A stretch of DNA of 64,000 bases from an uncultured Muribaculaceae bacterium (GTDB taxonomy: Bacteria; Bacillota_I; Bacilli_A; RF39; UBA660). The notes under the pieces are model-generated. The model did not search any database. It was not told the origin of the DNA and saw only the letters and a program-made list of their open reading frames with translations. Positions 6,018 to 42,539 of the stretch are shown piece after piece. Where the stretch lies: positions 3,498-67,497 of the forward strand of contig CAZJKO010000002.1 in NCBI GenBank assembly GCA_964546995.1, given 5' to 3'. Both the position numbers and the translations under genes were made by a program. Each line of letters starts with the position of its first letter. Position 1 is the first letter of the stretch.

Positions 6018-6780
6018 TTTGATTCAACTCGCTTATAGTATTCATCCCTACTTGATAACCCTCTTTCTCAAGTGTATGAGCAAGAGAAAGATCACCCGTT
6101 TTAACAATCTTACCATCCATCATCACATGGACCTGATCTGGAACCAAGTATTCTAAAATACGTGGATAATGAGTAATAATAAGTAACGAAGTATTAGGAT
6201 ACTCCTTTAAATACTGATTAATATTATCGCAAACGACTTTTAAACTATCGATATCGAGTCCTGAATCTACTTCATCCAAAATAATAAACTGTGGTTTCAA
6301 AAGCTTCATTTGCAAAATCTCATTTTTCTTTTTTTCACCGCCAGAAAAGCCTTGATTTAAAGAACGATAAAGCATATCGTGAGGCATATGTAGATCATCG
6401 AGCGCTTTTGATGCTCCATTCACAAATTGGAAAACAGTTTGATGCTCTCCTCTAGAAGAAAGAGCTGTTCGCAAAAACTCACTCACTTTAACACCGTCGA
6501 TACTAATAGGATTTTGCATCGATAAAAAAATACCAAGTCGTGCCCGCTCATCCGTAGAAAGAGATAGAATACTTTTCCCATCAACCAAAATATCCCCATG
6601 TTGAACAACGTAAGAAGGGCTACCTAAAATCACCTTAGAAAGTGTACTCTTACCTGTACCATTTGGTCCCATAATGGCATGCACTTGTGAGGGACCTATC
6701 GTAAGCGAAAAATCATTCAAAACTAGCTTTTCTGAAACTTGAACCGTCACATTTTTAATTTCTATTGTCATCGAATTCAC
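6010..6780 (-). CDS. sufC: Fe-S cluster assembly ATPase SufC (ABC-type)
   Basis: Walker A GPNGTGKST, ABC signature LSGGEKKK, Walker B ILDEVDSGLD, H-loop ITHY. Confidence 0.9.
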   Translation of the reverse strand: MNSMTIEIKNVTVQVSEKLVLNDFSLTIGPSQVHAIMGPNGTGKSTLSKVILGSPSYVVQHGDILVDGKSILSLSTDERARLGIFLSMQNPISIDGVKVSEFLRTALSSRGEHQTVFQFVNGASKALDDLHMPHDMLYRSLNQGFSGGEKKKNEILQMKLLKPQFIILDEVDSGLDIDSLKVVCDNINQYLKEYPNTSLLIITHYPRILEYLVPDQVHVMMDGKIVKTGDLSLAHTLEKEGYQVGMNTISELNQNA

Positions 6781-7011
6781 CCTCCAAATACCTCTATATT
6801 TAAAAATCTAATAACATTATAACAGAATTCTCAAAAAAAATTTGTCACTTTCAAAGAAATGTAATTATTTTAACATAAAATGTATAAAAAAGAAAGAATT
6901 CTTCCAAGATGATAGTGAATATTCGCTGTATTCACCAAAATGGACAAAACTTGTTCATTTTTTCTTTTTCGAGAAAACATCTTATGATAAAATAAAGAAA
7001 GAGGTGGTAAC

Positions 7012-7365
7012 ATGACCAAACGAAAACCAACAACACTTCTCTTTGGAATGGCAAGTCTTTTTCTATTTACGTTCGTCTTTTTTGGTTACCTGATTATCTC
7101 TAGCAACGGAAACCCTATTAAAGAAAGTATCGTAAAAAGAAAAATAGAAACGTATCAAAACGAAAATTTTCCCCTAATTGAAGAGGAGTTTAAAAAAGAA
7201 AACATGACCTATGACAAAAAAAATAGGTCTTATCAAGTCACCTATACCATGAAAGAAAACAGTAACCTTTCCTTTCAAATCATCTATGATAAAGACGAAA
7301 ACATCAAAGATACCTATCAAACAAATATCGAAGAAAGAAAAGAATTACTAGAAAAAAAGAAATAA
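7012..7365 (+). CDS. small membrane-anchored/secreted hypothetical protein
   Basis: 117 aa. N-terminal hydrophobic segment LLFGMASLFLFTFVFFGYLII followed by a K/E-rich domain. RBS GAGGTGG upstream. No family recognised with confidence. Confidence 0.45.
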   Translation: MTKRKPTTLLFGMASLFLFTFVFFGYLIISSNGNPIKESIVKRKIETYQNENFPLIEEEFKKENMTYDKKNRSYQVTYTMKENSNLSFQIIYDKDENIKDTYQTNIEERKELLEKKK

Positions 7366-8380: not shown

Positions 8381-8506
8381 TTAACAAGCAATGGCAGCGC
8401 CTAAAATAATAGCTAATAAAATGTATAAAACAATAATGATGATATATCCGCCATTAGAAGAACAAGTATTGCCACAACCTGTATTCACTGTATTTTGACA
8501 AGACAT
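8381..8506 (-). CDS. YjcZ-like sporulation microprotein (41 aa), below the ORF-track size cutoff
   Basis: Hand-translated: MSCQNTVNTGCGNTCSSNGGYIIIIVLYILLAIILGAAIAC. Strong RBS TAAGGAGGT 8 nt upstream. Gly/Ser-rich N-terminus plus a hydrophobic IIVLYILLAIILGAA tail, typical of Bacillus YjcZ-family sporulation peptides. Confidence 0.55.
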   Translation of the reverse strand: MSCQNTVNTGCGNTCSSNGGYIIIIVLYILLAIILGAAIAC

Positions 8507-8532
8507 TTAAATTACCTCCTTACAATAATAAA

Positions 8533-8613
8533 TTAGATATAAGCACCAACAATGATGACTAATAAAATAAATAATACTAAAACGATAGCTGAAGATGATA
8601 CATAATTACCCAT
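8533..8613 (-). CDS. second YjcZ-like microprotein (26 aa)
   Basis: Hand-translated: MGNYVSSSAIVLVLFILLVIIVGAYI. RBS AAAAAGGAGGTATTC upstream. Tandem with the 41-aa paralog. Confidence 0.45.
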   Translation of the reverse strand: MGNYVSSSAIVLVLFILLVIIVGAYI

Positions 8614-8763
8614 AGTGAATACCTCCTTTTTTTAATATTCACATTATTTTATGGCTCTTCCCCTTTTTGTGTGAATGCTTCCTACTAAATTTTGATAAAT
8701 TATTGTCTTTTACCTTGTTTTTTGTTATGATAATCACATACGGATTAAAGGAGGAAAACACAA

Positions 8764-9744
8764 ATGAAAAAATTATTCATTACATTATGTATGGTATTAT
8801 TATTCACCACAGGTTGTGGAAAAGTACCCAAGTTAGAAAATGGAGAAGATGCTGTCGTTAGCTTAAAAAATGGTAAAATCTCGGTAGATGCGCTTTACGA
8901 AGAAGTAAAAAACAAATATGCCGTAAATGTACTAATCGATATGATCGATAAACAAATTCTAAATGAAAAGTATAAAACGACAGACGAAGAAACCAAAAAA
9001 ATAGAAAGTCAAATCGAACAGATGAGAGCACAATTTAATACGGAAGCAGAATACTTACAAGCAATACAATCTTACTTCTCTGTAAAAGATGAAAACGAAT
9101 TAAAAGAACTATTATCTCTAGATTATAAAAGAGGTTTAGCTGTCGAAGAATATAGCAAAAGCTTAGTAACAGAAAAAGAAATTGAAGAGTATTACAACAA
9201 CAAAACAGTTGGAGATATGGAAGCAAGTCACATTCTAATTAAACCAAAAACGACAGATGGAATGACGAGTGAAGAAAAAACCAAAGCTGAAGAAGAAGCA
9301 TTACAAAAAGCAAAAGAAGTAATCACAAGACTAAATAACGGAGAAGATTTTGCGACATTAGCCAAAGAACTATCCGATGATGAAGGAAGTAAAGAAGATG
9401 GTGGTAAAGTTGGTAAATTCAACCGAAATTCAAACTTCGTCACAGAATTCATCGAAGGAGCCATTAGCTTGGAAGAAGGAAAATACTCAACGGAACCAGT
9501 TAAATCAAGCTTTGGATACCACATCATCTTAAAAACATCCCAAAAAGAAAAACCATCACTCGACAAAGTCAAAGATGACATCATTGCTACCCTAGCAGAA
9601 GAGAAAGAAACAAATGATACCAAACTTCAATATAAAGCGTTAATCGACCTAAGAGAAAAAAGTGGTATAAAAATCGAAGATAGCGAATTAGAATCACAAT
9701 ACAATAAATTGATGAATTCACTATTAACACAAGAAACAAAATAA
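8764..9744 (+). CDS. prsA: foldase lipoprotein PrsA (parvulin-type peptidyl-prolyl isomerase)
   Basis: Lipoprotein signal MKKLFITLCMVLLFTTGC (lipobox LFTTGC). Parvulin PPIase core SHILIKP...FGYHIILK. RBS AAAGGAGGAAAAC. Rho-independent terminator at 9745..9773. Confidence 0.85.
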   Translation: MKKLFITLCMVLLFTTGCGKVPKLENGEDAVVSLKNGKISVDALYEEVKNKYAVNVLIDMIDKQILNEKYKTTDEETKKIESQIEQMRAQFNTEAEYLQAIQSYFSVKDENELKELLSLDYKRGLAVEEYSKSLVTEKEIEEYYNNKTVGDMEASHILIKPKTTDGMTSEEKTKAEEEALQKAKEVITRLNNGEDFATLAKELSDDEGSKEDGGKVGKFNRNSNFVTEFIEGAISLEEGKYSTEPVKSSFGYHIILKTSQKEKPSLDKVKDDIIATLAEEKETNDTKLQYKALIDLREKSGIKIEDSELESQYNKLMNSLLTQETK

Positions 9745-9793
9745 ACATCGAATAAAGATGTTTTTTCTTTTTGATTATAGGCAAAGCAAATAG

Positions 9794-9820
9794 ACCCTTT
9801 TTCCTAGTAGTCATATGATA
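9794..9820 (+). promoter_or_regulatory. candidate sigma-K-type sporulation promoter (AC-N16-CATATGATA) upstream of the cotD-like gene
   Basis: AC at 9794-9795, 16-nt spacer, CATATGATA at 9812-9820 matching the CATA---TA -10 consensus. ATG lies 24 nt downstream. Pattern match only. Confidence 0.3.
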
Positions 9821-9844
9821 GACTAGATAGGAGGAAAGAATAAC

Positions 9845-10189
9845 ATGTTTAGAAATCAAGATTATTTAAACAACAACGAAATGAACGCTACGTTCATTGG
9901 TAACAACAACACCATCGAAAACGAAATGAATATGAATGTAACTTCAAGTGGAATGGGAATGAATATGGGAGGTTGTACTTGTAGCCATATGCACAAACCA
10001 ATCTGCTGCCCACCTCAAGAAAGATGCATTCATAAAACATTCGTTCACGAAATACCACATATTTGCCCAATACGTACTCGCGTAATTAATCATCATGTAT
10101 ATAAACATACATATCGCCCTGAATTTAGTTGCCAAGAAGAAAATGTGGTAAGTAATATTCAATGTGGCTCTTGCAACCAATTCCGTTAA
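9845..10189 (+). CDS. cotD: CotD-family inner spore coat protein
   Basis: 114 aa, Cys/His-rich: CTCSHMHKPICCPP...PIRTRVINHHVYKHTYRPEF. The NHHxYxHxYxP motif resembles Bacillus CotD. RBS GGAGGAAAG. Confidence 0.65.
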   Translation: MFRNQDYLNNNEMNATFIGNNNTIENEMNMNVTSSGMGMNMGGCTCSHMHKPICCPPQERCIHKTFVHEIPHICPIRTRVINHHVYKHTYRPEFSCQEENVVSNIQCGSCNQFR

Positions 10190-10214
10190 AAGTCTTTTTA
10201 AGACTTTTTTCTTT
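10127..10214 (+). repeat. direct repeat copy 1 (about 88 bp): 3' end of cotD-like gene plus its terminator hairpin
   Basis: agttgccaagaagaaaatgtggtaagtaatattcaatgtggctcttgcaaccaattccgttaaaagtctttttaagacttttttcttt. Near-identical copy at 10915..11002 with about 6 mismatches. Contains hairpin AAAAGTCTT-TTT-AAGACTTTT plus T-run (10187..10214). Confidence 0.8.
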
Positions 10215-10275
10215 GCAACAAAGGAATTTACTTTATAAAAAAGAAGAATTATTACATAATAATAGTAAAATGCAA

Positions 10276-10304
10276 TTGACAAATGTATAAACTTTGTATA
10301 TACT
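10276..10304 (+). promoter_or_regulatory. sigma-A-type promoter TTGACA-N17-TATACT for mazEF
   Basis: TTGACA at 10276-10281, 17-nt spacer, TATACT at 10299-10304, about 22 nt upstream of the mazE ATG. Confidence 0.5.
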
Positions 10305-10326
10305 GTAAATGAATGGAGATGATACC

Positions 10327-10569
10327 ATGGAAGCAAGACTTCAAAAATGGGGTAATTCCACTGGAATAAGAATCCCAAGTAGTATTTTAAAATCTTTAAA
10401 TATTAAGACTAACGACATATTAAATATTGAACAAAAGGAAGATAAAATAATTATCAGTATTCCAAAGAAAAAAAAGATATCTTTAGAAGAAAGGTTTAAA
10501 AATTATCACGGTGAAAATTTAGCGAAAGATTTTTCTTGGGATGAACCCGTTGGGAGAGAAATATGGTAA
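10327..10569 (+). CDS. mazE: MazE/PemI-type antitoxin (AbrB/SpoVT swapped-hairpin fold)
   Basis: MEARLQKWGNSTGIRIPSSILKSLNIK... is the canonical MazE/AbrB-type motif. RBS GGAGATGA. Stop overlaps the mazF start by 7 nt. Confidence 0.8.
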   Translation: MEARLQKWGNSTGIRIPSSILKSLNIKTNDILNIEQKEDKIIISIPKKKKISLEERFKNYHGENLAKDFSWDEPVGREIW

Positions 10570-10904
10570 AAAAATATATTCCAAAGCAAGGAGACATTGT
10601 TTTTTTAGATTTTAATCCGACAAAAGGACATGAACAGACAGGAATTAGACCAGCAGTTGTTGTAAGCACTAATATTTTTAATCAAAATACTAAAATGGCT
10701 ATTGTATGCCCTATTACATCGAATAATAAAGAATTTCCAACACATTACAAGTTAGAAAATAGTCAAAACGTACATGGCTCAGTTCTATGTGAACATATTA
10801 GAAGCATAGACTATGAAACTAGAAACCTAAAATTTGTAGAAAAAACAAGTGATAATGACTTTATAAGTATAATAACATTATTAAATGCATGTATAGAAGA
10901 ATAA
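10563..10904 (+). CDS. mazF: MazF/PemK-type endoribonuclease toxin
   Basis: IPKQGDIVFLDFNPTKGHEQTGIRPAVVVS...AIVCPITS, full-length PemK/MazF signature (113 aa). Confidence 0.85.
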   Translation: MVKKYIPKQGDIVFLDFNPTKGHEQTGIRPAVVVSTNIFNQNTKMAIVCPITSNNKEFPTHYKLENSQNVHGSVLCEHIRSIDYETRNLKFVEKTSDNDFISIITLLNACIEE

Positions 10905-10914
10905 ATCTATCATA

Positions 10915-11002
10915 GTTACCAAGAAGAAAACGTGGTAAGTAATATTCAATGTAGCTCTTGCAACCAATTTCATTAAAAGTCTTTTTAAGACTTTTTTCTT
11001 TA
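10915..11002 (+). repeat. direct repeat copy 2: remnant of a cotD-like 3' end (encodes ...QEENVVSNIQCSSCNQFH*) plus terminator hairpin
   Basis: Aligns to 10127..10214 with a few substitutions. Hairpin AAAAGTCTTTTTAAGACTTTT + T-run at 10975..11002. Confidence 0.8.
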
Positions 11003-11096
11003 AAAAAGAAACTTCTGTCAAAGAGTGTCTAATTTTTGGTAATCACTTGCACTATTTACTATTTCGATATATTCTTAAAATAGGGAGTGTGATAAA

Positions 11097-11300
11097 GTGA
11101 TCTTTCCATCGATTGACAAATTGTTGAACGTTGTAGATTCCAAATACAAACTCGTTCACATTGCGGCAAGAAGAAGTAAAGAAATGGCCAAAACAAATCA
11201 TTACCAAATGCCTCTAAACAAATACCAAAGTGGAAAAAACATTGGTAGAGCTTTAGAAGAAGTAGCAGAGGGCCAAATCAAAGTCAAAGAAAAAGAATAA
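11097..11300 (+). CDS. rpoZ: DNA-directed RNA polymerase subunit omega
   Basis: 67 aa. SIDKLLNVVDSKYKLVHIAARRSKEM is the RpoZ signature. Probable GTG start with RBS GGGAG. Confidence 0.8.
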   Translation: MIFPSIDKLLNVVDSKYKLVHIAARRSKEMAKTNHYQMPLNKYQSGKNIGRALEEVAEGQIKVKEKE

Positions 11301-11360
11301 AAAGAGGAAAAAAGAATACTTTTTTCTTTTTTTTCGTTATAATAAAAGAAAGGTGATAAT

Positions 11361-12113
11361 ATGAAAGTACGCTCATTTAAAAAGAAAGCCAATGGATTCT
11401 ATCAAGTATTATTAGAAGAAACAGAACCCCTACTCATCCATGAAGATTTAATACTAAAATACGACATCTTAAAAAAACAAAAACTAGAAGAAGAAACCAT
11501 TAGACAAATAGAAGAAGAAAACAAAAAATACGTAGTATATCAAGATGCTCTTGCATCACTAAAAACAAGACTAAGAAGTACCAAAGAATTAAAAGAACGA
11601 CTCACAAAAAAAGAATATCCCAAAAAGGAAATCGAAGAAGTAATCGCTACTTTAACAAAGCAAGGCTATCTAAACGATAAAATTTATGCTGACTCGTTTG
11701 TCCATGATAAAATTTCTTTTTCTAAAGATGGACCAGAAAAAATAAAAGAAGAGTTATTACGCCTTGGGATAAAAACAGAATACATAGAACAGGCCCTTTG
11801 TTGTTTTACAAGCGACATAGAACAGATGAGAATCAAAAAAATCATCGACAAAGAAACAAAGACCAATCGAACTAAATCGGAAGTCATATTAAAAAGAAAA
11901 CTATTAGAAAATCTAGTGAGAAACGGTTACCATAAAGAATATATCACTCCCCTACTAGAAAAAGCAAAAAATCAAAATGAAAAATCAATCTACCAAAAAG
12001 AGTACGAAAAACAAAAAAAGAAATTAGAAAAAAAATATCAAGGAAAAGAACTAGAATACAAACTAAAAGAGAAAATGTACCAAAAAGGATTTCACTATGA
12101 AAGCATGGATTAA
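11361..12113 (+). CDS. recX: recombination regulator RecX
   Basis: 250 aa with three-repeat helical RecX architecture (...YLNDKIYADSFVHDKI...LLENLVRNGYHKEYI...). RBS AAAGGTGA. Not adjacent to recA here, as in Bacillus. Confidence 0.75.
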   Translation: MKVRSFKKKANGFYQVLLEETEPLLIHEDLILKYDILKKQKLEEETIRQIEEENKKYVVYQDALASLKTRLRSTKELKERLTKKEYPKKEIEEVIATLTKQGYLNDKIYADSFVHDKISFSKDGPEKIKEELLRLGIKTEYIEQALCCFTSDIEQMRIKKIIDKETKTNRTKSEVILKRKLLENLVRNGYHKEYITPLLEKAKNQNEKSIYQKEYEKQKKKLEKKYQGKELEYKLKEKMYQKGFHYESMD

Positions 12114-13521
12114 AAATCATCAAAAAGAAATATCTCTAGGCCTCTATCTCTTAGGATTCACTACTCTAATACTCTTGTTTACTCACACTGGATTCGACTA
12201 TTTTTGGCATAAAAAAGCAGGAGAAATCATGATGAACGAAAAAAGAATTCTAACAGTAGACCTTTTCAGTTGGACTGCCTATCAGAAACCGTGGATTTCT
12301 CATGAATGGCTAAGTGAAATAATCTTATATTTGTACCATATCATATTTAAAGGTCATAGCATCACTCTATACTGTGGAACCTTTTTACTAATACTCTATT
12401 TCTTTCTTTATATGACGAATAAAAAAGCAATGTTAAAAAACGTTCGTTTCACTATCATTTGGTTCTTCTTAAGTACTTTTATGATCGGAGGAAGCATCGC
12501 CCCAAGACCACAGATGATCAGTTATGTATTGCTTGCTATCACACTCTTTTTACTCTATCAAAAAAAGAACGATGAAAACAACAAAACCATTTATCTTCTA
12601 CCAATCGTTTCAATCATTTGGGCAAACGTCCATGGTGGCTCATCGAACCTTCCCTACCTATTAAGTCTCATTTTCTTTTTAAGTAGCATGATTTCCATTA
12701 ATCAAGAAAAAATAGAAAGCAAGTCACAAACAAAAAAACAAACCATTTCTTTTTTAATCGTTACAATTCTATCATTTCTTGCAATAACAATAAATCCACA
12801 TGGAATAAAATTACTAACGTACCCTTATGAAAATATGCAAGATAGCTTCATGCTAAATACTATCCAAGAATGGCGTCATTTAAATATCAACAACATAAGC
12901 GACCTAATCATACTAATCATGCCACTAATAACCATAACAATCTTAATCAAAACCAACAAAAAACACGACATTCTAGATTTAATCGTGCTCTTGCTATTCA
13001 CTTACCTACTTTTCAAAAGTGTAAGATTTGCCCCACTCTTCTTCATTGCAAGCACCTATATTGTATTTAAGTACATCAAAGAAAAACCTTACCACACCAA
13101 CCTAAATATCCTACTTCCCATCTTTGGACTAATATTTATCACATTCTTTCTAACCAAAGAAAAAGAACTCCAACTTAGAATAAATGAACCAGTAGTAAGT
13201 AACGAAATGATCGAAACCATAAAAGAACATCATCCAGAACATCTCTATAATTATTATGATTACGGAGGATATTTAATCGATAAAAACATAAAAGTATTTA
13301 TCGATGGTCGTGCCGACCTTTATTCCAAATATAATTACAAAGACTTCTATCACCTAACCTTTCTAAATCAAAACTATTTAGAAATATTAGAAGAATACAA
13401 CTTCGATTATCTCTTAGTCAAAAACCAAACACCACTAGCATATTACTTAAAAAACAATCAAGAATACCAGATCATAAAAGAAGAAAAATCTATAACTCTA
13501 TACAAAAAAGCTTTAGAATAA
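12097..13521 (+). CDS. polytopic membrane protein (about 12 TM) with C-terminal soluble domain; possible GT-C-type glycosyltransferase (YfhO/ArnT/PMT-like), low confidence
   Basis: 474 aa, hydrophobic N-terminal 350 aa with many TM helices, then a soluble C-terminal domain (...KVFIDGRADLYSKYNYKDFYHL...). Overlaps recX by 17 nt. A bidirectional terminator follows at about 13505..13540. Confidence 0.45.
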   Translation: MKAWIKNHQKEISLGLYLLGFTTLILLFTHTGFDYFWHKKAGEIMMNEKRILTVDLFSWTAYQKPWISHEWLSEIILYLYHIIFKGHSITLYCGTFLLILYFFLYMTNKKAMLKNVRFTIIWFFLSTFMIGGSIAPRPQMISYVLLAITLFLLYQKKNDENNKTIYLLPIVSIIWANVHGGSSNLPYLLSLIFFLSSMISINQEKIESKSQTKKQTISFLIVTILSFLAITINPHGIKLLTYPYENMQDSFMLNTIQEWRHLNINNISDLIILIMPLITITILIKTNKKHDILDLIVLLLFTYLLFKSVRFAPLFFIASTYIVFKYIKEKPYHTNLNILLPIFGLIFITFFLTKEKELQLRINEPVVSNEMIETIKEHHPEHLYNYYDYGGYLIDKNIKVFIDGRADLYSKYNYKDFYHLTFLNQNYLEILEEYNFDYLLVKNQTPLAYYLKNNQEYQIIKEEKSITLYKKALE

Positions 13522-13542
13522 ACCCTAAAGCCTTTTTTATTG

Positions 13543-15990
13543 CTATTTATCAATCACGACGACAGCACGAGCACCAAAGCTTGTACCCGTCGTGTTGAAG
13601 TTACTATTCACGCGACCGCCATAATTCACAAACAATGCAATCGACGACGTACTAGAAGAATATGCCGACATGGTCCAATATCCATAATTGTTTCCGTATT
13701 CTCCTCCAGTTACAGTTACTGTTCCCCCATAACTTGTTGAATTATATAAATAATTATTCATCCATGTGGGACAACTTTGAATAGAACTTGTACATCCTAA
13801 TCCTCCTGCTTCTTGCGCTGTAATCATCCGCGCCTTCCCTGTACGCTGTGATAATGTATACAGATTCGCTGTACAACTAACTCCTGAACTATCATATGTA
13901 CATCCTGTAAAAGCATTTGTCTTGAATGTGGTACTCCCAAGCGTATAGGTTTGATCTTTTACATTGGTCCAAGAAGATGTTGCACTCTCCAAAGCTGGTA
14001 ATACCGTTAATGGTCCCTTACTATTATCGGATGCCGCTTCGTACCATGCCGTTTTATAAATCGTATTCTCCCTTTGTTGCATCACTAAAGTATCTCCTTC
14101 ATCAAACATAACATGGAAGTATTTTATTTCACTTGCATTGACTTTGTATTTGATAATGGTTCCTGCTGTATACGTTGTCTGTGGTCCAATTTCTACACAA
14201 GTACTCTCCTCACCTGTTTGACAACTACTTGTATTATATCGATAAACTGCTACAATGTTAGAATTAGCAGGTAAAAGAACTTTAATATTTCCATTTGGAT
14301 GAGATACGGTTCCTCCTACAAATGTTGCACTACTACTTCCTCCTGTAATACTCTTCCAATCGAAACTTCTTCCTGTTTTATTATCGATAGTAACTAATCC
14401 CTTGTTACTTGTTGCACTTTTATAGAACGCATTCGTTCCAATTGATGTAACTGTCGTTGGAATAATAATACTAGTTAGATTATTATTTAGGAACACTTCA
14501 TTTCCTATGGTTGTTGTACCACTAGGTATCACCACACTAACTAAATTGTTATATGCCATCGATTTTGATCCAAGTGTTTTAACACTAGTTGGAATAATGA
14601 CATTTGTCGTTTTTGCTCCTCCATAACTAACTAACACACTCGTATTGTTACTTCCATCACTATTCTTTTGATAGAAGAAAGCATTACTATCAGGGAGTTT
14701 ATTGTTATTGAAAGCAGCATTCCCTAAATAAGTTAATGAGCTTGGTACTTCAACATTCATTAAATTGTTATTAGCAAATGCTTGAGTACCAATTGATGTA
14801 ACTGTCTCCGGGATAACGACACTCGTTATCTTTTTATTTTCAAAAGCATTATTTCCAATCGCTAATACTTCCGTTCCGCCAATTGTATTGGGTATCGTAA
14901 CATCACGAATCGTTTGATAGCCTTCACTATTTCCTTCATAACATAAATAATTACTTATCGTTCCAGTACTTGAATCAAATACAAAACAACTTTCTCTTAC
15001 TGCCGATTCTTTCATTTGTGCTCTTAAACTAGCTTGTAGTGAATAACTATTTGCTTCTTCCTCACTTACACTCTCATCGATCCATAGTCTTAGTTCATAT
15101 TCATTTGTTGTCCCTGCTTCGATCTTTCCTGTATCTAACACTCGTTCTCCTTCTACTAGAGTATTAGATAACGTATCAATGGGCATAGCTTCCTGATTCT
15201 TAACGAGTTGGTATTTTACTTTATCTGAAGGTGCTCCCACACTTCGCATTCTAAACGTACTAACATCATCTAATGTTACAGTATAATTACTTACATCACT
15301 TGATGTATTCTTTAATGAAAAGCGATATGGTTCTAGTTTCACACCTTCTTCATCAGTAGTTGGTACATTTCCATCTTCACTAAAACCAATCTCATTCGTT
15401 CCTAAAATATTCATGTTCAAGTTTTCTTCATTTAATACTGTCTCTGTTACTTGTGTTCCTACTACTCTTAGTTTTCCTCTTAATACTTGGCCCATCACTT
15501 CATTAGAGGCATTTTTATCAATCCATAGTCTTAGATCATAAGTAATCGTTTGTCCACCTTTAATGGTACCATGATCTAAGATTCGATTTGGATTTACCCC
15601 TAAAGCAGAAAGTAAAGCAGTTTTTGTTCTTGTGTCTTTCACGAGATTGTACTTTACCTTATTATCCGCCATTCTTGTTTCATTTTCTTCTAAAGCGATA
15701 TCATCAAAGTAGATTGTATACTCTACATACTCACTTCCTTCATTAATTAAAGTGAAGTGATAGGGATCTAACTTCTCTCCATCTTCGTCCAACATCGGAA
15801 CTGCTTTATCTTCATTGATTCCAATACTATTTTCTTCATCTAATCTTAACGAAAGTGTTCCTGATTTTAATACATTTACTTTGGTTCCATTTAAGGTAAG
15901 TGTGAACCATGCGTAGCTTCCTCCGATCAATAAAACAACTACTAGTAACACACTCATGCAGGTCATGAATATTTTCTTATTCTTTTCCAT
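13543..15990 (-). CDS. large surface protein: SipW-cognate-type signal peptide + two TasA/camelysin-like (M73-like) repeats + BspA-type leucine-rich repeats + Gly/Ser/Thr/Tyr-rich C-terminal domain
   Basis: 815 aa. N-terminus MEKNKKIFMTCMSVLLVVVLLIGGSYAWFTLTLNGTKVNVLKSGTLSL resembles TasA-type signals (..VGGGTWAAFND....ASGTLDL). Two internal repeats share ...KLDPYHFTL.NEGSE...KVKY.LVK...LRLWID.... LRR_5/BspA-like units (IP.TVTSIG..AF..N.L) fill residues about 370-520. RBS GAGGTG. Confidence 0.7.
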   Translation of the reverse strand: MEKNKKIFMTCMSVLLVVVLLIGGSYAWFTLTLNGTKVNVLKSGTLSLRLDEENSIGINEDKAVPMLDEDGEKLDPYHFTLINEGSEYVEYTIYFDDIALEENETRMADNKVKYNLVKDTRTKTALLSALGVNPNRILDHGTIKGGQTITYDLRLWIDKNASNEVMGQVLRGKLRVVGTQVTETVLNEENLNMNILGTNEIGFSEDGNVPTTDEEGVKLEPYRFSLKNTSSDVSNYTVTLDDVSTFRMRSVGAPSDKVKYQLVKNQEAMPIDTLSNTLVEGERVLDTGKIEAGTTNEYELRLWIDESVSEEEANSYSLQASLRAQMKESAVRESCFVFDSSTGTISNYLCYEGNSEGYQTIRDVTIPNTIGGTEVLAIGNNAFENKKITSVVIPETVTSIGTQAFANNNLMNVEVPSSLTYLGNAAFNNNKLPDSNAFFYQKNSDGSNNTSVLVSYGGAKTTNVIIPTSVKTLGSKSMAYNNLVSVVIPSGTTTIGNEVFLNNNLTSIIIPTTVTSIGTNAFYKSATSNKGLVTIDNKTGRSFDWKSITGGSSSATFVGGTVSHPNGNIKVLLPANSNIVAVYRYNTSSCQTGEESTCVEIGPQTTYTAGTIIKYKVNASEIKYFHVMFDEGDTLVMQQRENTIYKTAWYEAASDNSKGPLTVLPALESATSSWTNVKDQTYTLGSTTFKTNAFTGCTYDSSGVSCTANLYTLSQRTGKARMITAQEAGGLGCTSSIQSCPTWMNNYLYNSTSYGGTVTVTGGEYGNNYGYWTMSAYSSSTSSIALFVNYGGRVNSNFNTTGTSFGARAVVVIDK

Positions 15991-16151
15991 TTCTTACACC
16001 TCTACTCTAATACTCATTATAGTATAACTTCTTTTCTTTTTATTATTTTGTCTAATTTTTAGATATTTATGACACGAAAAATACAGAGTACATTCTACCC
16101 TGTATTTTTGCATATTAAAGAAGTGTGAGTCTTTACTTGTCTAGTAAGTTG

Positions 16152-16160
16152 CCCCCCCCC
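16152..16160. repeat. homopolymeric C9 (G9 on minus strand) tract in the 5' region of the large surface-protein gene
   Basis: gccccccccc at 16151-16160 in a roughly 30% GC genome, about 160 nt upstream of the ATG at 15990. Confidence 0.8.
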
Positions 16161-16246
16161 AAGTACGAATTTCTTGACAATTTTTCATCCCGTTCACTCC
16201 TCATATTTTTTACTAAAAGAATACCACAACTGTTAACAAAAGTAAA

Positions 16247-17554
16247 TTAGAATGGCATCTTCATTTTTCCATTAGAAAACTGCTTCATCATTTTTTTCAT
16301 GTTCTCAAACTGAATCAATAGTTGATTGACTTCTTGAACACTAAGACCACACCCTTTAGCAATTCTCGTTTTTCGACTTGCCTTGATAATATCGGGATTG
16401 CGTCTTTCCTTAGGCGTCATCGATAAAATAATCGCTTCAATATGCCCTAATTTTTTAGGATCGATCGAAACATTGTTTAAACCCATCTTAGAAGCACCTG
16501 GCAACATCTTAAGCAAATTTTCAAGAGGTCCTAATTTGCGAATTTGTTTCATGTTAGTAAGAAAATCTTCTAAATCAAATTTTCCACTTTGCATTTTTCT
16601 TGCTGATTTTTCTGCTTCTTTTTCGTCGATGACTTCCGTTGCTTTTTCCACAAGGGAAACGATATCACCCATACCTAAAATTCTTCCAGCCATACGTTCA
16701 GGATCGAACGGTTCCAATCCATCTAACTTTTCACTAACACCTATCATTTTGATCGGTACATCCGTCAAATGACGAACCGAAAGAGCAACTCCACCTCTCG
16801 TATCTCCATCTAACTTAGTTAAAATAACACCCGTTAATGGTAATTTATCATGAAAACCCGTAATGACATGAATGGCATCTTGCCCCATCATCGAATCGAT
16901 AACAAGCAATACTTCGTGTGGATGAAGAGCTTCGTTCATCTGTTCCAATTCATCCATCAAGGCATCATCGATATGGAGTCTTCCTGCTGTATCGATTAAT
17001 ATATAATCGTATCCGTTTTCTTTTGCTTCCTCGATCGCATGGCGAGCAATCGTAACAGGATCCCCATTTCCTTCCTCGTATACCGGAATTCCAAGCTGAG
17101 ACCCAATCTGCTTCAATTGATCGATTGCAGCGGGACGATAGACATCACACGCGACCAAAAGTGGCTTTTTAGCATGCTTCTTCCGCAAGAAATTCGCAAG
17201 CTTCCCGATCGTTGTCGTCTTTCCACTTCCCTGCAATCCCACTAACATGAGAATAGAAGGTTTAGACGACGTGTGAAGAGGACTCGCTTCCCCACCCAAA
17301 AGATTGGTGAGTTCATCTTTCACAATCTTAACAAACAAATCGCCTGGTCGAATACTCGTCCTAACTTCTTCCCCAAGGGCTTTTTCTTTCACTGTATTCG
17401 TAAATTCTTTTACTACTTTATAGTTGACATCCGCTTCCAAAAGAGCAAGACGAATTTCTCTCATCATATCGGAAATATTTTCTTCCGTAATTTTTCCATA
17501 TCCCTTGATTTTATGAATCGCATTTTGGAGCCGCTCTCCTAAACTTTCAAACAT
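16247..17554 (-). CDS. ffh: signal recognition particle protein Ffh
   Basis: 435 aa. GTPase motifs GLQGSGKTT, DTAGR, TKLDGD. M-domain with a Met-rich C-terminus. Confidence 0.95.
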   Translation of the reverse strand: MFESLGERLQNAIHKIKGYGKITEENISDMMREIRLALLEADVNYKVVKEFTNTVKEKALGEEVRTSIRPGDLFVKIVKDELTNLLGGEASPLHTSSKPSILMLVGLQGSGKTTTIGKLANFLRKKHAKKPLLVACDVYRPAAIDQLKQIGSQLGIPVYEEGNGDPVTIARHAIEEAKENGYDYILIDTAGRLHIDDALMDELEQMNEALHPHEVLLVIDSMMGQDAIHVITGFHDKLPLTGVILTKLDGDTRGGVALSVRHLTDVPIKMIGVSEKLDGLEPFDPERMAGRILGMGDIVSLVEKATEVIDEKEAEKSARKMQSGKFDLEDFLTNMKQIRKLGPLENLLKMLPGASKMGLNNVSIDPKKLGHIEAIILSMTPKERRNPDIIKASRKTRIAKGCGLSVQEVNQLLIQFENMKKMMKQFSNGKMKMPF

Positions 17555-17578
17555 AACCTTTCCCTCCTCAAAATATCA

Positions 17579-19342
17579 TCACGAATGAGTCGTTGTATTC
17601 CAATTTTTCACAACATCACAATTGCCACTCTTAGGTTCTGGTGATGGCATTGCTAACTTTACAATTAAAGGAATCTTAAATGCTCGACCAAAAGCAAGAC
17701 AAGTACCAGATTGTAAACTTTTCTGTTTTTCCACAATCTCTTCTGAAATATTAGGAACCATTTTTTTAATGTATTCGACATCCGTTGGATGGTTCATCTT
17801 AAAAATAAGAAAATTAGAACATTGCGAAATAACTGTATCCGAAAGCTCCACTGGTCTTTGAGAAATAAGTCCTAAAATGAGCCCGTACTTACGTCCTTCT
17901 TTTGCTACTCGATCAAAAATATTGTATCCAATTAAATATTGATCCCGATCATTTTGAATGTAACGATGTGCTTCCTCTACCAAAATATGAAATGGAATCG
18001 AAGCTCGATTAGGAAGTGCCTTCGTAAATTCAAAAAGTAATCTCGTATAAATTTTCGTAATAACTTTCGCAAAATCATCATCGACATCATCTAAATTAAT
18101 ATTGACAATCTGATATTTTTTCCCATCGGTAATAAGTAATGAGGTAAGGTACTGTTCCAACGTAATGTACTGTTTTACCTCAAAGTATTTCGCATAACTT
18201 CCTGTAATCAAAGAATGAAGACGAACCTTAATCGTAACAGCATCCCCATACGTATTTTCATTGCGAAGCCATCCCTCACTAATCAACGTAAAATTGAGTG
18301 CTTTTTCTAAATCAGGTAACGTATAAAAAGATTCCCCTTTTGGTTCGTAATTATCGAATTCTGGTTTAATGAACCCAGAAACATATTCGGTCAAAAGAAC
18401 ACTTTCGGTAAATTGACCAGCAGAATCGATTAAAAAACATTCCCGGAATTTTCGAACGTAACCAATTCCCTGTACCGGTGCTTCTAAATTAAATTCCGGT
18501 GTCGAACAACTAGCTAAAATAGAAAAAACATCGTTACGCTTGTTAGGAGACGTCTGATTAGTATATAAAATGGTCATAATTGCCTTAGCAATTAAATGAT
18601 TCTTATAAAGGTTGGAATCACTTCCCGTTTCCGCAAAAATGCGAGCCAACTTAAGCATTCTTTCGATAATGGGAAGTTGGGAATGCTCTGTTGCAGAAAG
18701 AAGAAGGGCCAAATCACTAGAATTAAGTAACCAAATAGGTAGACGTAATGCTTCTCCAATCCCATCTGTCTCATTCGTTGTATAAAATTTATAATGATAA
18801 TTTGGATTCATTTCGCTAATACTTTGAAAAGCATGATAGTATTCCCCAGAAGAATCGAATAACAACAAATTCGATTTATAAGGAAAGAGTCTCTTATCCA
18901 AAAACATATTTTGAATAATTCTGGCAATGCCACAACTCTTCCCGCTACCACTATTACCAAAAATAGCAAAGTGATTACTAAAGAAAGCATTCACATCCAT
19001 ATAAATAGGGTGATCATTGTAAAATGGACTAACACCCAAAAGCATATTACCCGGCTTGTTCTCCCCAACAATAAGAGGAATTTCTTCTTCTTTAATCACC
19101 CGAATAGAAGCATCGAGTGAAGGTTTACGAATGACTCCTCCAAAAAGAACTCCATTGATAAGTTCTCCTAAAAAACGGACCCTTACAATTCCTTCATTCA
19201 AATCGTCCACTTCTCCTAGTATCTTTTTATCAGAATCCTCAAAAATAACATGTAAATTCATAAGATTGATGGTAAGTGGCACATCGGGATTCAACTTTAC
19301 ATGTGCCAAATGATCACTAATATAAACAATTTTATCAAACAT
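17579..19342 (-). CDS. HerA-like ATPase (HAS-barrel + FtsK/HerA-clade P-loop NTPase, DUF87)
   Basis: 587 aa. N-terminal HAS-barrel-like region, Walker A FGNSGSGKS, Walker B HILVEEAH (DEAH-like), arginine-finger region SQRP. ATG is 3 nt from the upstream GNAT stop. Lies 24 nt upstream of ffh. Confidence 0.7.
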   Translation of the reverse strand: MFDKIVYISDHLAHVKLNPDVPLTINLMNLHVIFEDSDKKILGEVDDLNEGIVRVRFLGELINGVLFGGVIRKPSLDASIRVIKEEEIPLIVGENKPGNMLLGVSPFYNDHPIYMDVNAFFSNHFAIFGNSGSGKSCGIARIIQNMFLDKRLFPYKSNLLLFDSSGEYYHAFQSISEMNPNYHYKFYTTNETDGIGEALRLPIWLLNSSDLALLLSATEHSQLPIIERMLKLARIFAETGSDSNLYKNHLIAKAIMTILYTNQTSPNKRNDVFSILASCSTPEFNLEAPVQGIGYVRKFRECFLIDSAGQFTESVLLTEYVSGFIKPEFDNYEPKGESFYTLPDLEKALNFTLISEGWLRNENTYGDAVTIKVRLHSLITGSYAKYFEVKQYITLEQYLTSLLITDGKKYQIVNINLDDVDDDFAKVITKIYTRLLFEFTKALPNRASIPFHILVEEAHRYIQNDRDQYLIGYNIFDRVAKEGRKYGLILGLISQRPVELSDTVISQCSNFLIFKMNHPTDVEYIKKMVPNISEEIVEKQKSLQSGTCLAFGRAFKIPLIVKLAMPSPEPKSGNCDVVKNWNTTTHS

Positions 19343-40955: not shown

Positions 40956-41063
40956 AATTCTCGGCTCCCGAGAATTTTTTTATGCAAGAAACCACGATTT
41001 TTCATCATAACAAGAAATAGCATCACATAAAGTTAAATGAAATCAAAAGAAAAGGTGAAGAAT

Positions 41064-42539
41064 ATGGAAAAATATGATATTATCAAAAACATCGCAGAAC
41101 GAACAGGAGGAGATATCTACTTAGGCGTCGTCGGTGCTGTTCGCACTGGAAAAAGTACCTTCATAAAAAAAGTGATCGAAACATTAGTCGTTCCAAACAT
41201 CGAAGATGAATACGAACGAAAAAGAGCCCTCGATGAAATTCCTCAAAGTGCCGCAGGAAAAACGATTATGACAACGGAACCAAAATTTGTACCTAACCAA
41301 GCAGCCAAAATCAATATCGACGACTTCTCATGTAACATTAGATTGATCGATTGTGTCGGTTACATGATTGATAATGCCAAAGGAGCAGAAGACGAAAATG
41401 GTCCCCGTATGGTCAAAACACCATGGTATGATGATGAAATACCATTCGTCGAAGCTGCCGAACTAGGAACCGAAAAAGTCATCAAAGATCATTCAACGAT
41501 CGGTATTGTCGTAACGACAGATGGATCAATCGGGGAATTTAATAGAAAAGACTACATCGATTCAGAACAACGAGTCATCGAAGAATTAAAAGAAATAGGA
41601 AAACCATTTATCGTCTTGTTAAACTCAACGCATCCTACCTTACCAGAAACAGAACGCTTAGCAGAATCACTAAAAGAAGAACACAACATCCCAGTCATCC
41701 CGATCAGCATTGAAGCCATGAACGAAAAAGATATGTATAATATCTTAAGAGAAGCTCTCTACGAATTCCCTGTACTAGAAGTAAAAGTGAACATGCCAGA
41801 ATGGATTGCCATTCTAAACCCAACCCATAAAGTAAAAAAAGTCTATATCGATGCCATTAAAGAAAGTGTAACGGAAGTAGATAAATTGAGAGATATCGAA
41901 AATATTACCAAACATTTCTTAAATAACGAATGCATTGAAAAAGCTTATTTATCGGAAGTAAATCCTGCAACAGGAGAAGTCATCGTAACCTTAACAGCAC
42001 CAGCAGATCTATATAACCAAGTCTTAACAGACATCATTAAAATCGATGTCAAAAACAAAGCAGAATTACTATCCCTATTCCAAGAATATAACGAAGCAAA
42101 ACGAGAGTACGATCAAGTAAAATATGCCTTAAAAATGGTCAAACAAACAGGATATGGTGTTGCAACGCCTACCCTATCAGATATGAAATTAGATACACCA
42201 GAAATCACGAAACAAGGCACAAGATATGGAGTAAAACTAAAAGCTGTAGCACCTAGCATCCACATGATTCGAGTCGACGTCCAAAGTACTTTCGAACCGA
42301 TCATTGGAAGCGAATTACAAAGTAAAGAACTAATCAATTATTTAATGAAAGATTATGAAACAGAACCAGACAACATTTGGAAAAGCGAAATTTTTGGTCG
42401 CAGTCTAGATGTCATTGTCCAAGAAGGAATTCAATCGAAAATCAACATGATGCCAGACAACATAAGATATAAATTACAACAAACCCTAACTAAAGTAGTG
42501 AACAAAGGATCAAACAACATGATAGCCATCGTTCTATAA
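41064..42539 (+). CDS. spoIVA: stage IV sporulation protein A (spore coat morphogenetic ATPase)
   Basis: MEKYDIIKNIAERTGGDIYLGVVGAVRTGKSTFIKK... nearly identical to the B. subtilis SpoIVA N-terminus, with Walker A. 492 aa from the ATG at 41064 (RBS AAAGGTGAAG). Terminator GATAGA-gaaa-TCTATC + T7 at 42540..42563. Confidence 0.9.
   Translation: MEKYDIIKNIAERTGGDIYLGVVGAVRTGKSTFIKKVIETLVVPNIEDEYERKRALDEIPQSAAGKTIMTTEPKFVPNQAAKINIDDFSCNIRLIDCVGYMIDNAKGAEDENGPRMVKTPWYDDEIPFVEAAELGTEKVIKDHSTIGIVVTTDGSIGEFNRKDYIDSEQRVIEELKEIGKPFIVLLNSTHPTLPETERLAESLKEEHNIPVIPISIEAMNEKDMYNILREALYEFPVLEVKVNMPEWIAILNPTHKVKKVYIDAIKESVTEVDKLRDIENITKHFLNNECIEKAYLSEVNPATGEVIVTLTAPADLYNQVLTDIIKIDVKNKAELLSLFQEYNEAKREYDQVKYALKMVKQTGYGVATPTLSDMKLDTPEITKQGTRYGVKLKAVAPSIHMIRVDVQSTFEPIIGSELQSKELINYLMKDYETEPDNIWKSEIFGRSLDVIVQEGIQSKINMMPDNIRYKLQQTLTKVVNKGSNNMIAIVL

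Follow-up and report, generated by a model that had tools for sequence, protein, structure and literature searches.

Several sporulation genes are known to be interrupted by elements that carry a large serine recombinase (LSR): skin in sigK (with SpoIVCA), SPβ in spsM (SprA/SprB), gin in gerE (GirC/GirX), and yin in yabG (PMC5595907, PMC4191935, PMC5499854, PMC5025042, PMC10747680). Of these, gin measures 28.6 kb (PMC5595907). Toxin-antitoxin (TA) systems, in turn, can stabilize integrated elements, as described for type I TA systems on C. difficile prophages (PMC7699646) and for SezAT/AbiE on ICESa2603 (PMC11062541). Here we analyzed a 64-kb stretch of bacterial DNA (the window; contig CAZJKO010000002.1), in which a mazEF TA pair directly follows a cotD-like, putative spore coat gene and is bracketed by two copies of the 3' end of that gene. 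The explanation that we favor, with moderate confidence, is that mazEF and the downstream 89-nucleotide (nt) copy are the leftover end of a small gene-intervening LSR element similar to skin and gin. The window itself is, on this explanation, a derivative scar and not a member of the skin/gin-type elements.

The gene order in the window is prsA-like, cotD-like, mazEF, rpoZ, recX, and a gene for a 474-amino-acid (aa) membrane protein. mazEF is enclosed by an 89-nt direct repeat (10126-10214 and 10913-11001), the copies of which are 94% identical, differ by 5 substitutions, and start 787 nt apart. An earlier note on this DNA had described mazEF as bracketed by a direct repeat of the cotD-like 3' end plus terminator and had taken the repeat as a footprint of local rearrangement. 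Repeat searches, shuffling, and a second strain all support this description, with the details (about 88 bp, about 6 substitutions, and a second copy at 10915..11002) amended to the values given above. Each half of the repeat is single copy within the window, and 0 of 100 shuffles gave a match. The independently assembled strain L002 (the loci compared here carry L numbers) has the same structure with both copies present. An assembly artifact was rejected in view of the 5 differences between the copies and of their presence in the L002 assembly as well.

Copy 1 (10126..10214, plus strand) contains the functional last 20 codons of the cotD-like gene, the stop codon, and a terminator hairpin (10188-10208) with its T-run. 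Copy 2 (10913..11001, plus strand) is a displaced, nonfunctional 3' remnant consisting of codons 95 to 114, the stop codon, and the terminator. It can still be read as a CotD-like C-terminal peptide, SYQEENVVSNIQCSSCNQFH followed by a stop, in agreement with the earlier note, and is devoid of a start codon or ribosome-binding site of its own. Three of the five changes relative to copy 1 are nonsynonymous, with C96Y and G108S affecting residues that are invariant in the family alignment. Copy 2 is an untranslated, decaying pseudo-remnant that evolves like a pseudogene, while its hairpin probably now serves as the mazEF terminator ahead of rpoZ. Both hairpins consist of a 9-bp A/U-rich stem and a U-run, have folding energies of -7.6 (copy 1) and -6.5 (copy 2) kcal/mol (z = -4.0 and -3.3), and beat 200 of 200 shuffles. 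A simple terminator scan was blind to both, because it requires three G-C pairs and the stem has 2. The right flank from 11002 onward (AAAAAAGAAAC…; flank and rpoZ together span 11002..11300 on the plus strand, with rpoZ at 11097-11300, TIGR00690, 50.5 bits) is common to L001, L002, L073, and L071, and copy 2 joined to this flank looks like an unoccupied site.

The module between the copies is, as had been proposed from its sequence, a complete mazE-mazF pair with its own promoter. The promoter (10276..10304, plus strand; TTGACA-N17-TATACT, matching at 11 of 12 positions) has a near-invariant sequence over about 60 loci and overlaps conserved GTATAAAC/GTATATAC repeats, which we presume to be the MazE operator. 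The genes for the 80-aa antitoxin MazE (10327..10569, plus strand; PF04014, 45.6 bits against a cutoff of 24.7) and the 113-aa MazF/PemK-family toxin (10563..10904, plus strand; PF02452, 95.2 bits against 23.1) form one operon with the antitoxin upstream, and the mazE stop overlaps the mazF start at 10563-10569. MazF matches solved MazF structures with E values of 1e-17 to 3e-24 and more than 1,500 homologue clusters at E ≤ 1e-20, of which the approximately 120 listed are 81 to 100% identical; an exact-protein look-up returned no identical protein on record. Both proteins miss the NCBIfam equivalog cutoffs (MazF, NF007386, 89.1 against 120; MazE, NF007312, 47.2 against 113). Judged by its domains, the pair belongs to the MazEF/PemIK type II TA family and is not the E. 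coli orthologue. dN/dS is about 0.06 to 0.08 for mazE and about 0.08 for mazF, and by this measure the pair is under strong purifying selection. Neither a transposase open reading frame (ORF) nor terminal inverted repeats accompany the cassette, according to the ORFs of the window and a repeat search. The present-day mazEF is most likely a chromosomal TA pair that maintains itself. Its deletion by recombination between the 89-nt copies should be counterselected.

The evidence for an origin from an LSR element comes from related genomes. We sorted about 70 loci, drawn from the contigs of two MazF clusters and from one genome per species scanned with MazF, into layout classes by tblastn. The relatives are metagenome-assembled genomes labeled Bacilli, Tenericutes, Mollicutes, or Erysipelotrichaceae, many of them from gut or rumen samples. 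In at least 10 species (loci L011-L013, L016, L017, L020, L023, L025, L029, L036, L042, and L043), cotD is split at codon 71/72 by an LSR element of 2.6 to 5.3 kb. The order is the cotD 5' part, then cargo, a 58-aa ORF, the LSR, mazE, and mazF, and finally cotD codons 72 to 114 with the terminator, followed in the fetched sequence of L011-L013, L016, L017, L025, L036, and L042 by rpoZ (tblastn). The 5' part ends in …FVHEVPQV and a stop, and the 3' part reads HVCPIHTR…CCQFR and a stop. The LSR has 519 aa with Resolvase, Recombinase, and Zn_ribbon domains, and the cargo varies (Peptidase_MA_2, Fic, and PHP); the smallest element, that of L029 at 2.6 kb, has only the small ORF, the recombinase, and mazEF. 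The junctions attL (…CCACA(A/T)GTG / TGATAATTTATGATAGAC) and attR ((G)TCTATCAAAAAAGGGCAAGGA / CATGTTTGTCC) are conserved across species, and the two arms of the element form an inverted repeat, GTCTATCA…TGATAGAC, as an attP of a serine recombinase should. From the mazF stop to the right arm there are only 0 to 1 nt, and mazEF is therefore the last thing in the element. The intact cotD of L078, a near-identical strain, precisely joins the two halves found in L025, with 98.7% and 98.4% identity to them, in indirect support of a precise excision that would restore the gene.

Homology to the attL and attR of 11 split loci, and to the intact attB of L032, L027, and L078, places an unoccupied attB equivalent of this recombinase at 10040..10080 (plus strand; …GAAATACCACA/TATTTGCCCAATACG…) in the cotD-like gene of the window, with the crossover predicted near 10059/10060, at codon 71/72. 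The features that define skin and gin, an LSR within the element and a gene split by attL and attR, are found in the relatives and not in the window, where cotD is unsplit and tblastn found no match to the LSR anywhere. What the window does have is an 8-nt segment between the mazF stop and copy 2 (10905..10912, plus strand; ATCTATCA, compared with the split-locus consensus (G)TCTATCAAAAAAGGGCAAGGACA). The same bases stand 3' of the mazF stop in all split-gene loci and in many loci devoid of an LSR. These 8 nt, weak evidence on their own, may be a vestige of the outer end of the right attachment arm.

Further loci connect the window with the split genes. Loci of the window type, with an intact cotD, mazEF, and usually rpoZ, are represented by 18 haplotypes. 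In these, direct repeats of the local cotD terminator, which is specific to the species, typically flank mazEF and sometimes include more of cotD. The repeat measures 199 nt in L027 (96% identity), 98 nt in L037 (87%), and 89 nt in the window (94%), and then 45 nt in L032, 42 nt in L041, 41 nt in L024, 33 nt in L039, 30 nt in L030, 26 nt in L038, 25 nt in L052, and 24 nt in L053. Its 3' limit is always just past the terminator T-run, and its 5' limit is variable. The downstream copy in L027 begins with the right arm of the element (ATATATCAAAAAAGAATAAGGACA) and continues with cotD from codon 72. In L037, arm and cotD remnant are full but degenerate, and the last approximately 9 LSR codons are still found 5' of the mazEF promoter (38 of 42 nt as in L020; nhmmer E = 0.019). 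In L030, the arm is retained together with a remnant that has an internal deletion. In the window, 8 nt of arm lead directly to codon 95, with about 85 nt deleted relative to the split loci, and in L024, L038, L039, L041, L052, and L053, as well as in L032, which has a vestigial arm, only the terminator is left. Together, these loci show a decay series in which the LSR was lost, cotD is intact, mazEF was kept, and the remnant shrinks, with the window at one stage. Of the 18 window-type haplotypes, 11 have flanking duplicates, whereas none of the 10 split loci and only 1 of about 20 in other contexts has them (Fisher p = 3e-4 and 1.6e-3), and species with a cotD…rpoZ arrangement devoid of mazEF (L079 and L082) have a single cotD and no duplicate. 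As the cotD-mazEF neighborhood recurs in dozens of species, the placement of a TA module beside a coat gene is not the unusual arrangement for which it had been taken.

Based on these data, we propose the following model. An LSR element would integrate at codon 71/72 of the cotD-like spore gene and carry mazEF as its addiction module: once the excised, nonreplicating circle was lost, the labile MazE would be lost as well, and MazF would poison the vegetative cell. In the lineage of the window, the recombinase and cargo would have gone and cotD would have become whole again, leaving mazEF and the cotD 3' end of the right junction, and it is the retention of this 3' end with its terminator that would have placed mazEF between the two copies of a direct repeat. 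In the simplest route, …mazEF-attR-cotD3'-terminator would first be duplicated in tandem, and the LSR would then recombine attL with the proximal attR as in any normal excision; unequal exchange of an excised sister chromosome with an unexcised one would be equivalent. Either event would yield an intact cotD, its terminator, a novel joint, and (recombinase 3' stub)-mazEF-attR-cotD3'-terminator. The layout of L037 and L027 is exactly the product of the duplication-then-excision route. Element loss would be survivable only for cells with a retained mazEF copy, and we propose toxin addiction as the reason why the survivors always have mazEF and the novel joint always lies 5' of the mazEF promoter. 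Subsequent erosion would have deleted the arm and codons 72 to 94 and added point mutations, sparing the hairpin.

Several observations weigh against this model. The window has neither an LSR nor an attL, and its arm is reduced to 8 nt. Among the loci seen there is no natural intermediate with two mazEF copies, so that the duplication-then-excision route is inferred, and in the species of the window we found neither a strain with a split cotD nor one with an empty site. A scan of metagenomes for the left arm retrieved 13 stretches, which comprised 4 attL junctions, 1 degenerate locus, and 8 unrelated contexts, and no attP junction of a circle. The segment between the cotD terminator and the mazEF -35 box (10215..10275, plus strand), the origin of which was not traced, did not match LSR 3' ends in a search with an nhmmer profile of 8 split loci and gave only chance matches to all fetched loci in blastn-short; its promoter-proximal part, ATAATAATAGTAAAAT, is common to other mazEF cassettes. 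L059 has a similar terminator duplication around mazEF at a site that involves neither cotD nor an LSR. Finally, mazEF is located upstream of cotD in L040, L028, and L044, which the model leaves unexplained. The cotD of L040 is split, with mazEF 5' of it and the recombinase directly abutting attR (9765-14770), whereas in L028 and L044, the cotD downstream of mazEF is intact. Separately, L062 has a 59%-identical mazEF about 900 nt downstream of the cotD 3' part.

Two observations on the elements themselves may be added. In L042 (7009-9703), a full recombinase gene and a 301-aa gene are followed by the 3' fragment of another recombinase allele (…IEIFEDKTINIKVSF) and mazEF; the right-end module, consisting of the recombinase 3' end, mazEF, and the arm, thus seems to be exchanged between elements. 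The left arm GTGTGATAATTTTTGATAGAC was also found on metagenome contigs beside two unrelated sequences that do not contain cotD (L085, L088, and L091; L086, L087, L089, L090, and L094), which may be other targets of the same recombinase family.

The alternative that fares best, though we consider it unlikely, is that the approximately 630-nt mazEF cassette, from promoter to stop, is itself mobile and lands duplicatively at stop codon/terminator boundaries, either by template switching at hairpins via microhomology (GAATAA) or through an integrase that acts in trans and cuts both sides of the hairpin; the link to cotD and the LSR would then be secondary. L059 speaks for this: its mazEF (9687-10371), with about 70% aa identity, is located between a 551-aa TGS/udk (uridine kinase)-like gene and gap-pgk and is flanked by a 29- to 35-nt duplicate of the host gene's stop and terminator. 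In L054 (around 6600-7050), moreover, a cassette occupies precisely the position between the stop codon of a host gene and the terminator, and no duplicate is present. In the minimal cassettes of L038, L052, and L053, the repeat begins at most 1 nt away from the mazF stop, and its end is no more than 5 nt from the -35 box. All repeat sequences are specific to their species, and mazEF occupies four different positions relative to cotD. Outside the cotD context, however, duplicates are rare (1 of about 20 loci), and a defined staggered cut would not produce repeats of 24 to 199 nt with a variable 5' limit. The longest repeats, those of L027 and L037, start exactly at the LSR crossover and include the attachment arm, while the split-gene loci hold the cassette with no flanking repeat at all. 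The cassette is not accompanied by a transposase, an integrase, or terminal inverted repeats. In a slightly less probable version, mazEF would be an autonomous hitchhiker that duplicates the whole terminator hairpin (24 to 45 nt), with the LSR element as one landing site among others. If this were true, it would imply an undescribed hairpin-targeted insertion in trans, by staggered cut or template switch; L059 and the minimal cassettes L038, L052, and L053 are the cases that it would explain best.

We think it improbable that the repeat goes back to an old duplication of the cotD 3' end and terminator that gene conversion has homogenized ever since, even if two terminators might be selected as insulators, one between cotD and mazEF and one between mazEF and rpoZ, and the toxin would counterselect deletion by crossover. 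Copies are about 94% alike within genomes, and terminators are wholly different between species, as gene conversion would have it; the two hairpins of the window are also identical and fold well, and at repeat position 19, copy 1 of L002 has the base of copy 2, a possible conversion tract. Yet both strains have the same three fixed differences, copy 2 is decaying in its coding part, and there are haplotypes of the same species that do not have copy 2. Repeats of 24 to 30 nt are, as is generally known, near the lower limit for homologous recombination, and the arm vestiges and LSR remnants would be left unexplained.

The earlier note had named another explanation first, in which there were two tandem cotD paralogs and a TA cassette took the place of the second, of which only the end was left. 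The cotD piece downstream of mazEF and the three cotD 3' copies in L027 would fit such a history, which we nonetheless regard as very improbable. None of the approximately 70 loci has two full-length tandem cotD genes, and L079 and L082, where mazEF is absent, have one cotD and no remnant. The complete remnants in L027 and L037 begin at codon 72 behind the arm, where the LSR crossover lies, and neither of them starts with the 5' part of cotD; they are therefore the displaced 3' end of a single cotD gene and not of a paralog. Strains of the same species as the window (L073 and L077) also have mazEF in this position and lack a second copy of cotD, an arrangement that the earlier note itself had named as speaking against its proposal. 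Its other suggestion, an insertion by recombination at the gene end, was close to the mark in spirit and left out the serine-recombinase element that targets the cotD coding sequence.

Least probable among the readings that we graded is that mazEF represents a tiny integrase-less island similar to a cis-mobilizable element (CIME), with the 89-nt repeats as attL and attR of a tyrosine-recombinase element that restores the cotD 3' end. Direct repeats of a gene 3' end are the classic look of such elements, and TA cargo on them is found in the SXT and integrative conjugative element (ICE) literature (PMC11062541). None of the examined loci contains a tyrosine integrase, though, the extent of the repeat varies from 24 to 199 nt between species where a fixed core would not, and the recombinase that is present is an LSR acting at codon 71/72 rather than at the 3' end.

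A transposon or insertion sequence with target site duplication was rejected: there is no transposase, there are no terminal inverted repeats, and the duplication, at 24 to 199 nt, is not of fixed length. With respect to integrons, there is no tyrosine recombinase among the genes called around any locus; attC sites were not searched for, and the hairpins on either side of mazEF are normal terminators that belong to the upstream gene. A model in which the element supplies a surrogate 3' end, as phage 21 does in icd, was rejected as well, as the attL of the split loci reaches a stop two codons past the crossover, after …VPQV.

As to the age of the duplication, three of the five differences between the copies are common to the window and L002. 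Since these are fixed in both strains, the duplication is a little older than the separation of the strains and much younger than the species. Contigs with a cotD about 94.5% identical to that of the window show two other haplotypes at the same spot. In one of them (L073 and L077), the order is cotD, terminator, mazEF, and rpoZ, with a mazEF allele of 86% nt identity, a degenerate arm (ATCAATGAAAGAAAGCACACA…) 3' of mazF, and no copy 2. The other (L071, L072, L074, L075, and L076) has an extra TA-like pair 5' of a decayed mazEF. This pair, which is also present in L027 (2407-3699; in L071, 3491-4784), consists of an approximately 109-aa ORF, split in L071, and a 316-aa helix-turn-helix/MqsA-like protein with a SocA_Panacea domain, and the mazEF beside it has acquired frameshifts, a TGG-to-TGA change, and an internal deletion. 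Taken together, these haplotypes suggest that addiction modules have succeeded one another at a single hot spot.

Between the window and L073, dS is 0.86 for mazF, compared with 0.21 for cotD and 0.39 for rpoZ, so that each of the two mazEF alleles has had a history of its own. At third codon positions, mazEF is more similar across species than ffh, and the correlation between the two is loose (rho 0.41). From these comparisons it appears that the mazEF cassette, or the element end carrying it, moves horizontally. A very recent horizontal insertion was rejected as the cause of the near-identical repeats, as there are no near-identical mazEF alleles across species (dS 0.56 to 0.86).

The target itself, the cotD-like gene (9845..10189, plus strand), is an intact ORF of 114 aa with a conserved His/Cys-rich C-terminal half. 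Its product scores 17.8 bits (E = 0.0047) against PF11122 (CotD) and does not reach the gathering score of 22, while 19 of 25 family members match PF11122 at E ≤ 0.1, with a best value of 2.6e-5. The designation CotD-like is thus a reasonable label, to be taken as a tentative lead rather than as family membership. We found 469 homologues. The orthologues are only 55 to 67% identical, in contrast to the homologues of MazF, which are unusually well conserved. In the family alignment, the His/Cys-rich half is invariant. Upstream of the gene, the motif AC-N16-CATATGATA (9794-9820) fits the consensus of mother-cell sigma-K promoters, of which it is a candidate; the leader ATAGACTAGATAGGAGGAAAG that follows it is conserved in L003 and L078. 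The window encodes SpoIVA at 41037-42539 (TIGR02836, 712 bits against a cutoff of 460), which was detected in a second NCBIfam scan, the first, on ten large ORFs of the window, having given no sporulation gene. As MurE and PBP1A are encoded too, the host is, judging from its genes, a walled endospore former, which corroborates the earlier view that the TA module adjoins a gene of a spore former.

The block from cotD through mazEF, rpoZ, and recX to the 474-aa gene is inverted relative to its neighbors (window 8764-19342, compared with L003, L012, and L032). In the relatives, a DUF87/HerA-like gene, ffh, a 178-aa gene, and cotD are followed, after a 468-aa gene, by prsA on the opposite strand, whereas in the window, the series from prsA and cotD to the 474-aa gene is followed by genes for an 815-aa leucine-rich repeat protein, ffh (16247-17554), and the HerA-like protein (17579-19342), all on the minus strand. 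At 8381-8640 on the minus strand, next to the gene for a CmpB-like membrane protein, there are two tandem tiny ORFs with a Cys/Gly/Asn-rich head and a hydrophobic tail (e.g., MSCQNTVNTGCGNTCSSNGGYIIIIVLYILLAIILGAAIAC), which are related to each other (a repeat of 73%); relatives have genes of 39 to 42 aa in their place.

If our interpretation is true, the list of skin, SPβ, gin, and yin gains a new target and a new clade, with a family of elements of only 2.6 to 5.3 kb, the smallest of which (a small ORF, the recombinase, and the TA pair) is close to the minimum imaginable. A cotD-like target was absent from the literature that we searched on such elements, the term cotD itself having been checked only within PMC5595907. 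The decay series would provide direct comparative evidence for the origin of orphan chromosomal TA loci, and the model predicts duplications in survivors of forced excision. For annotation, TA pairs bracketed by copies of the upstream terminator could be read as former attachment sites.

Compared with skin, SPβ, gin, and yin, the elements of the relatives likewise split a gene, putatively a spore coat-like one, within its coding sequence and have the LSR near one element end. The 58-aa ORF upstream of the LSR could be a directionality factor like the 42-aa GirX. As in skin and gin, the arms are imperfect inverted repeats, and a near-identical strain has the precise intact gene. Unlike the four known elements, those of the relatives measure only 2.6 to 5.3 kb, reside in a clade of uncultured gut Bacilli, and have a type II mazEF flush against attR; the window differs further in having no recombinase and an unsplit gene. 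With the TA systems of prophages and ICEs, the relatives' pair shares its position inside an excisable, nonreplicating element, so that killing or arrest would be expected upon loss, whereas the window module appears to outlive its element, with the target gene duplication as a trace. The PemK fold, the overlapping MazE/AbrB-type antitoxin gene upstream, and the sigma-70-type promoter are as in E. coli MazEF and ChpBIK and B. subtilis EndoA, although, unlike E. coli MazEF, the window proteins stay under the NCBIfam equivalog cutoffs.

A last comparison is offered by phage 21 and e14 in icd, where integration duplicates the 3' end of the target gene in an alternative form; the phage brings the replacement 3' end next to its att site. 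The window resembles this arrangement in its succession of an intact target gene, an element, and a displaced copy of the 3' end, and the split-gene elements of the relatives differ from it in bringing no surrogate 3' end. Less usual among all these systems are a mazEF that lies flush with the attachment site, elements of such small size, and a natural series in which the TA pair outlives its element and leaves a duplication of the target gene behind.

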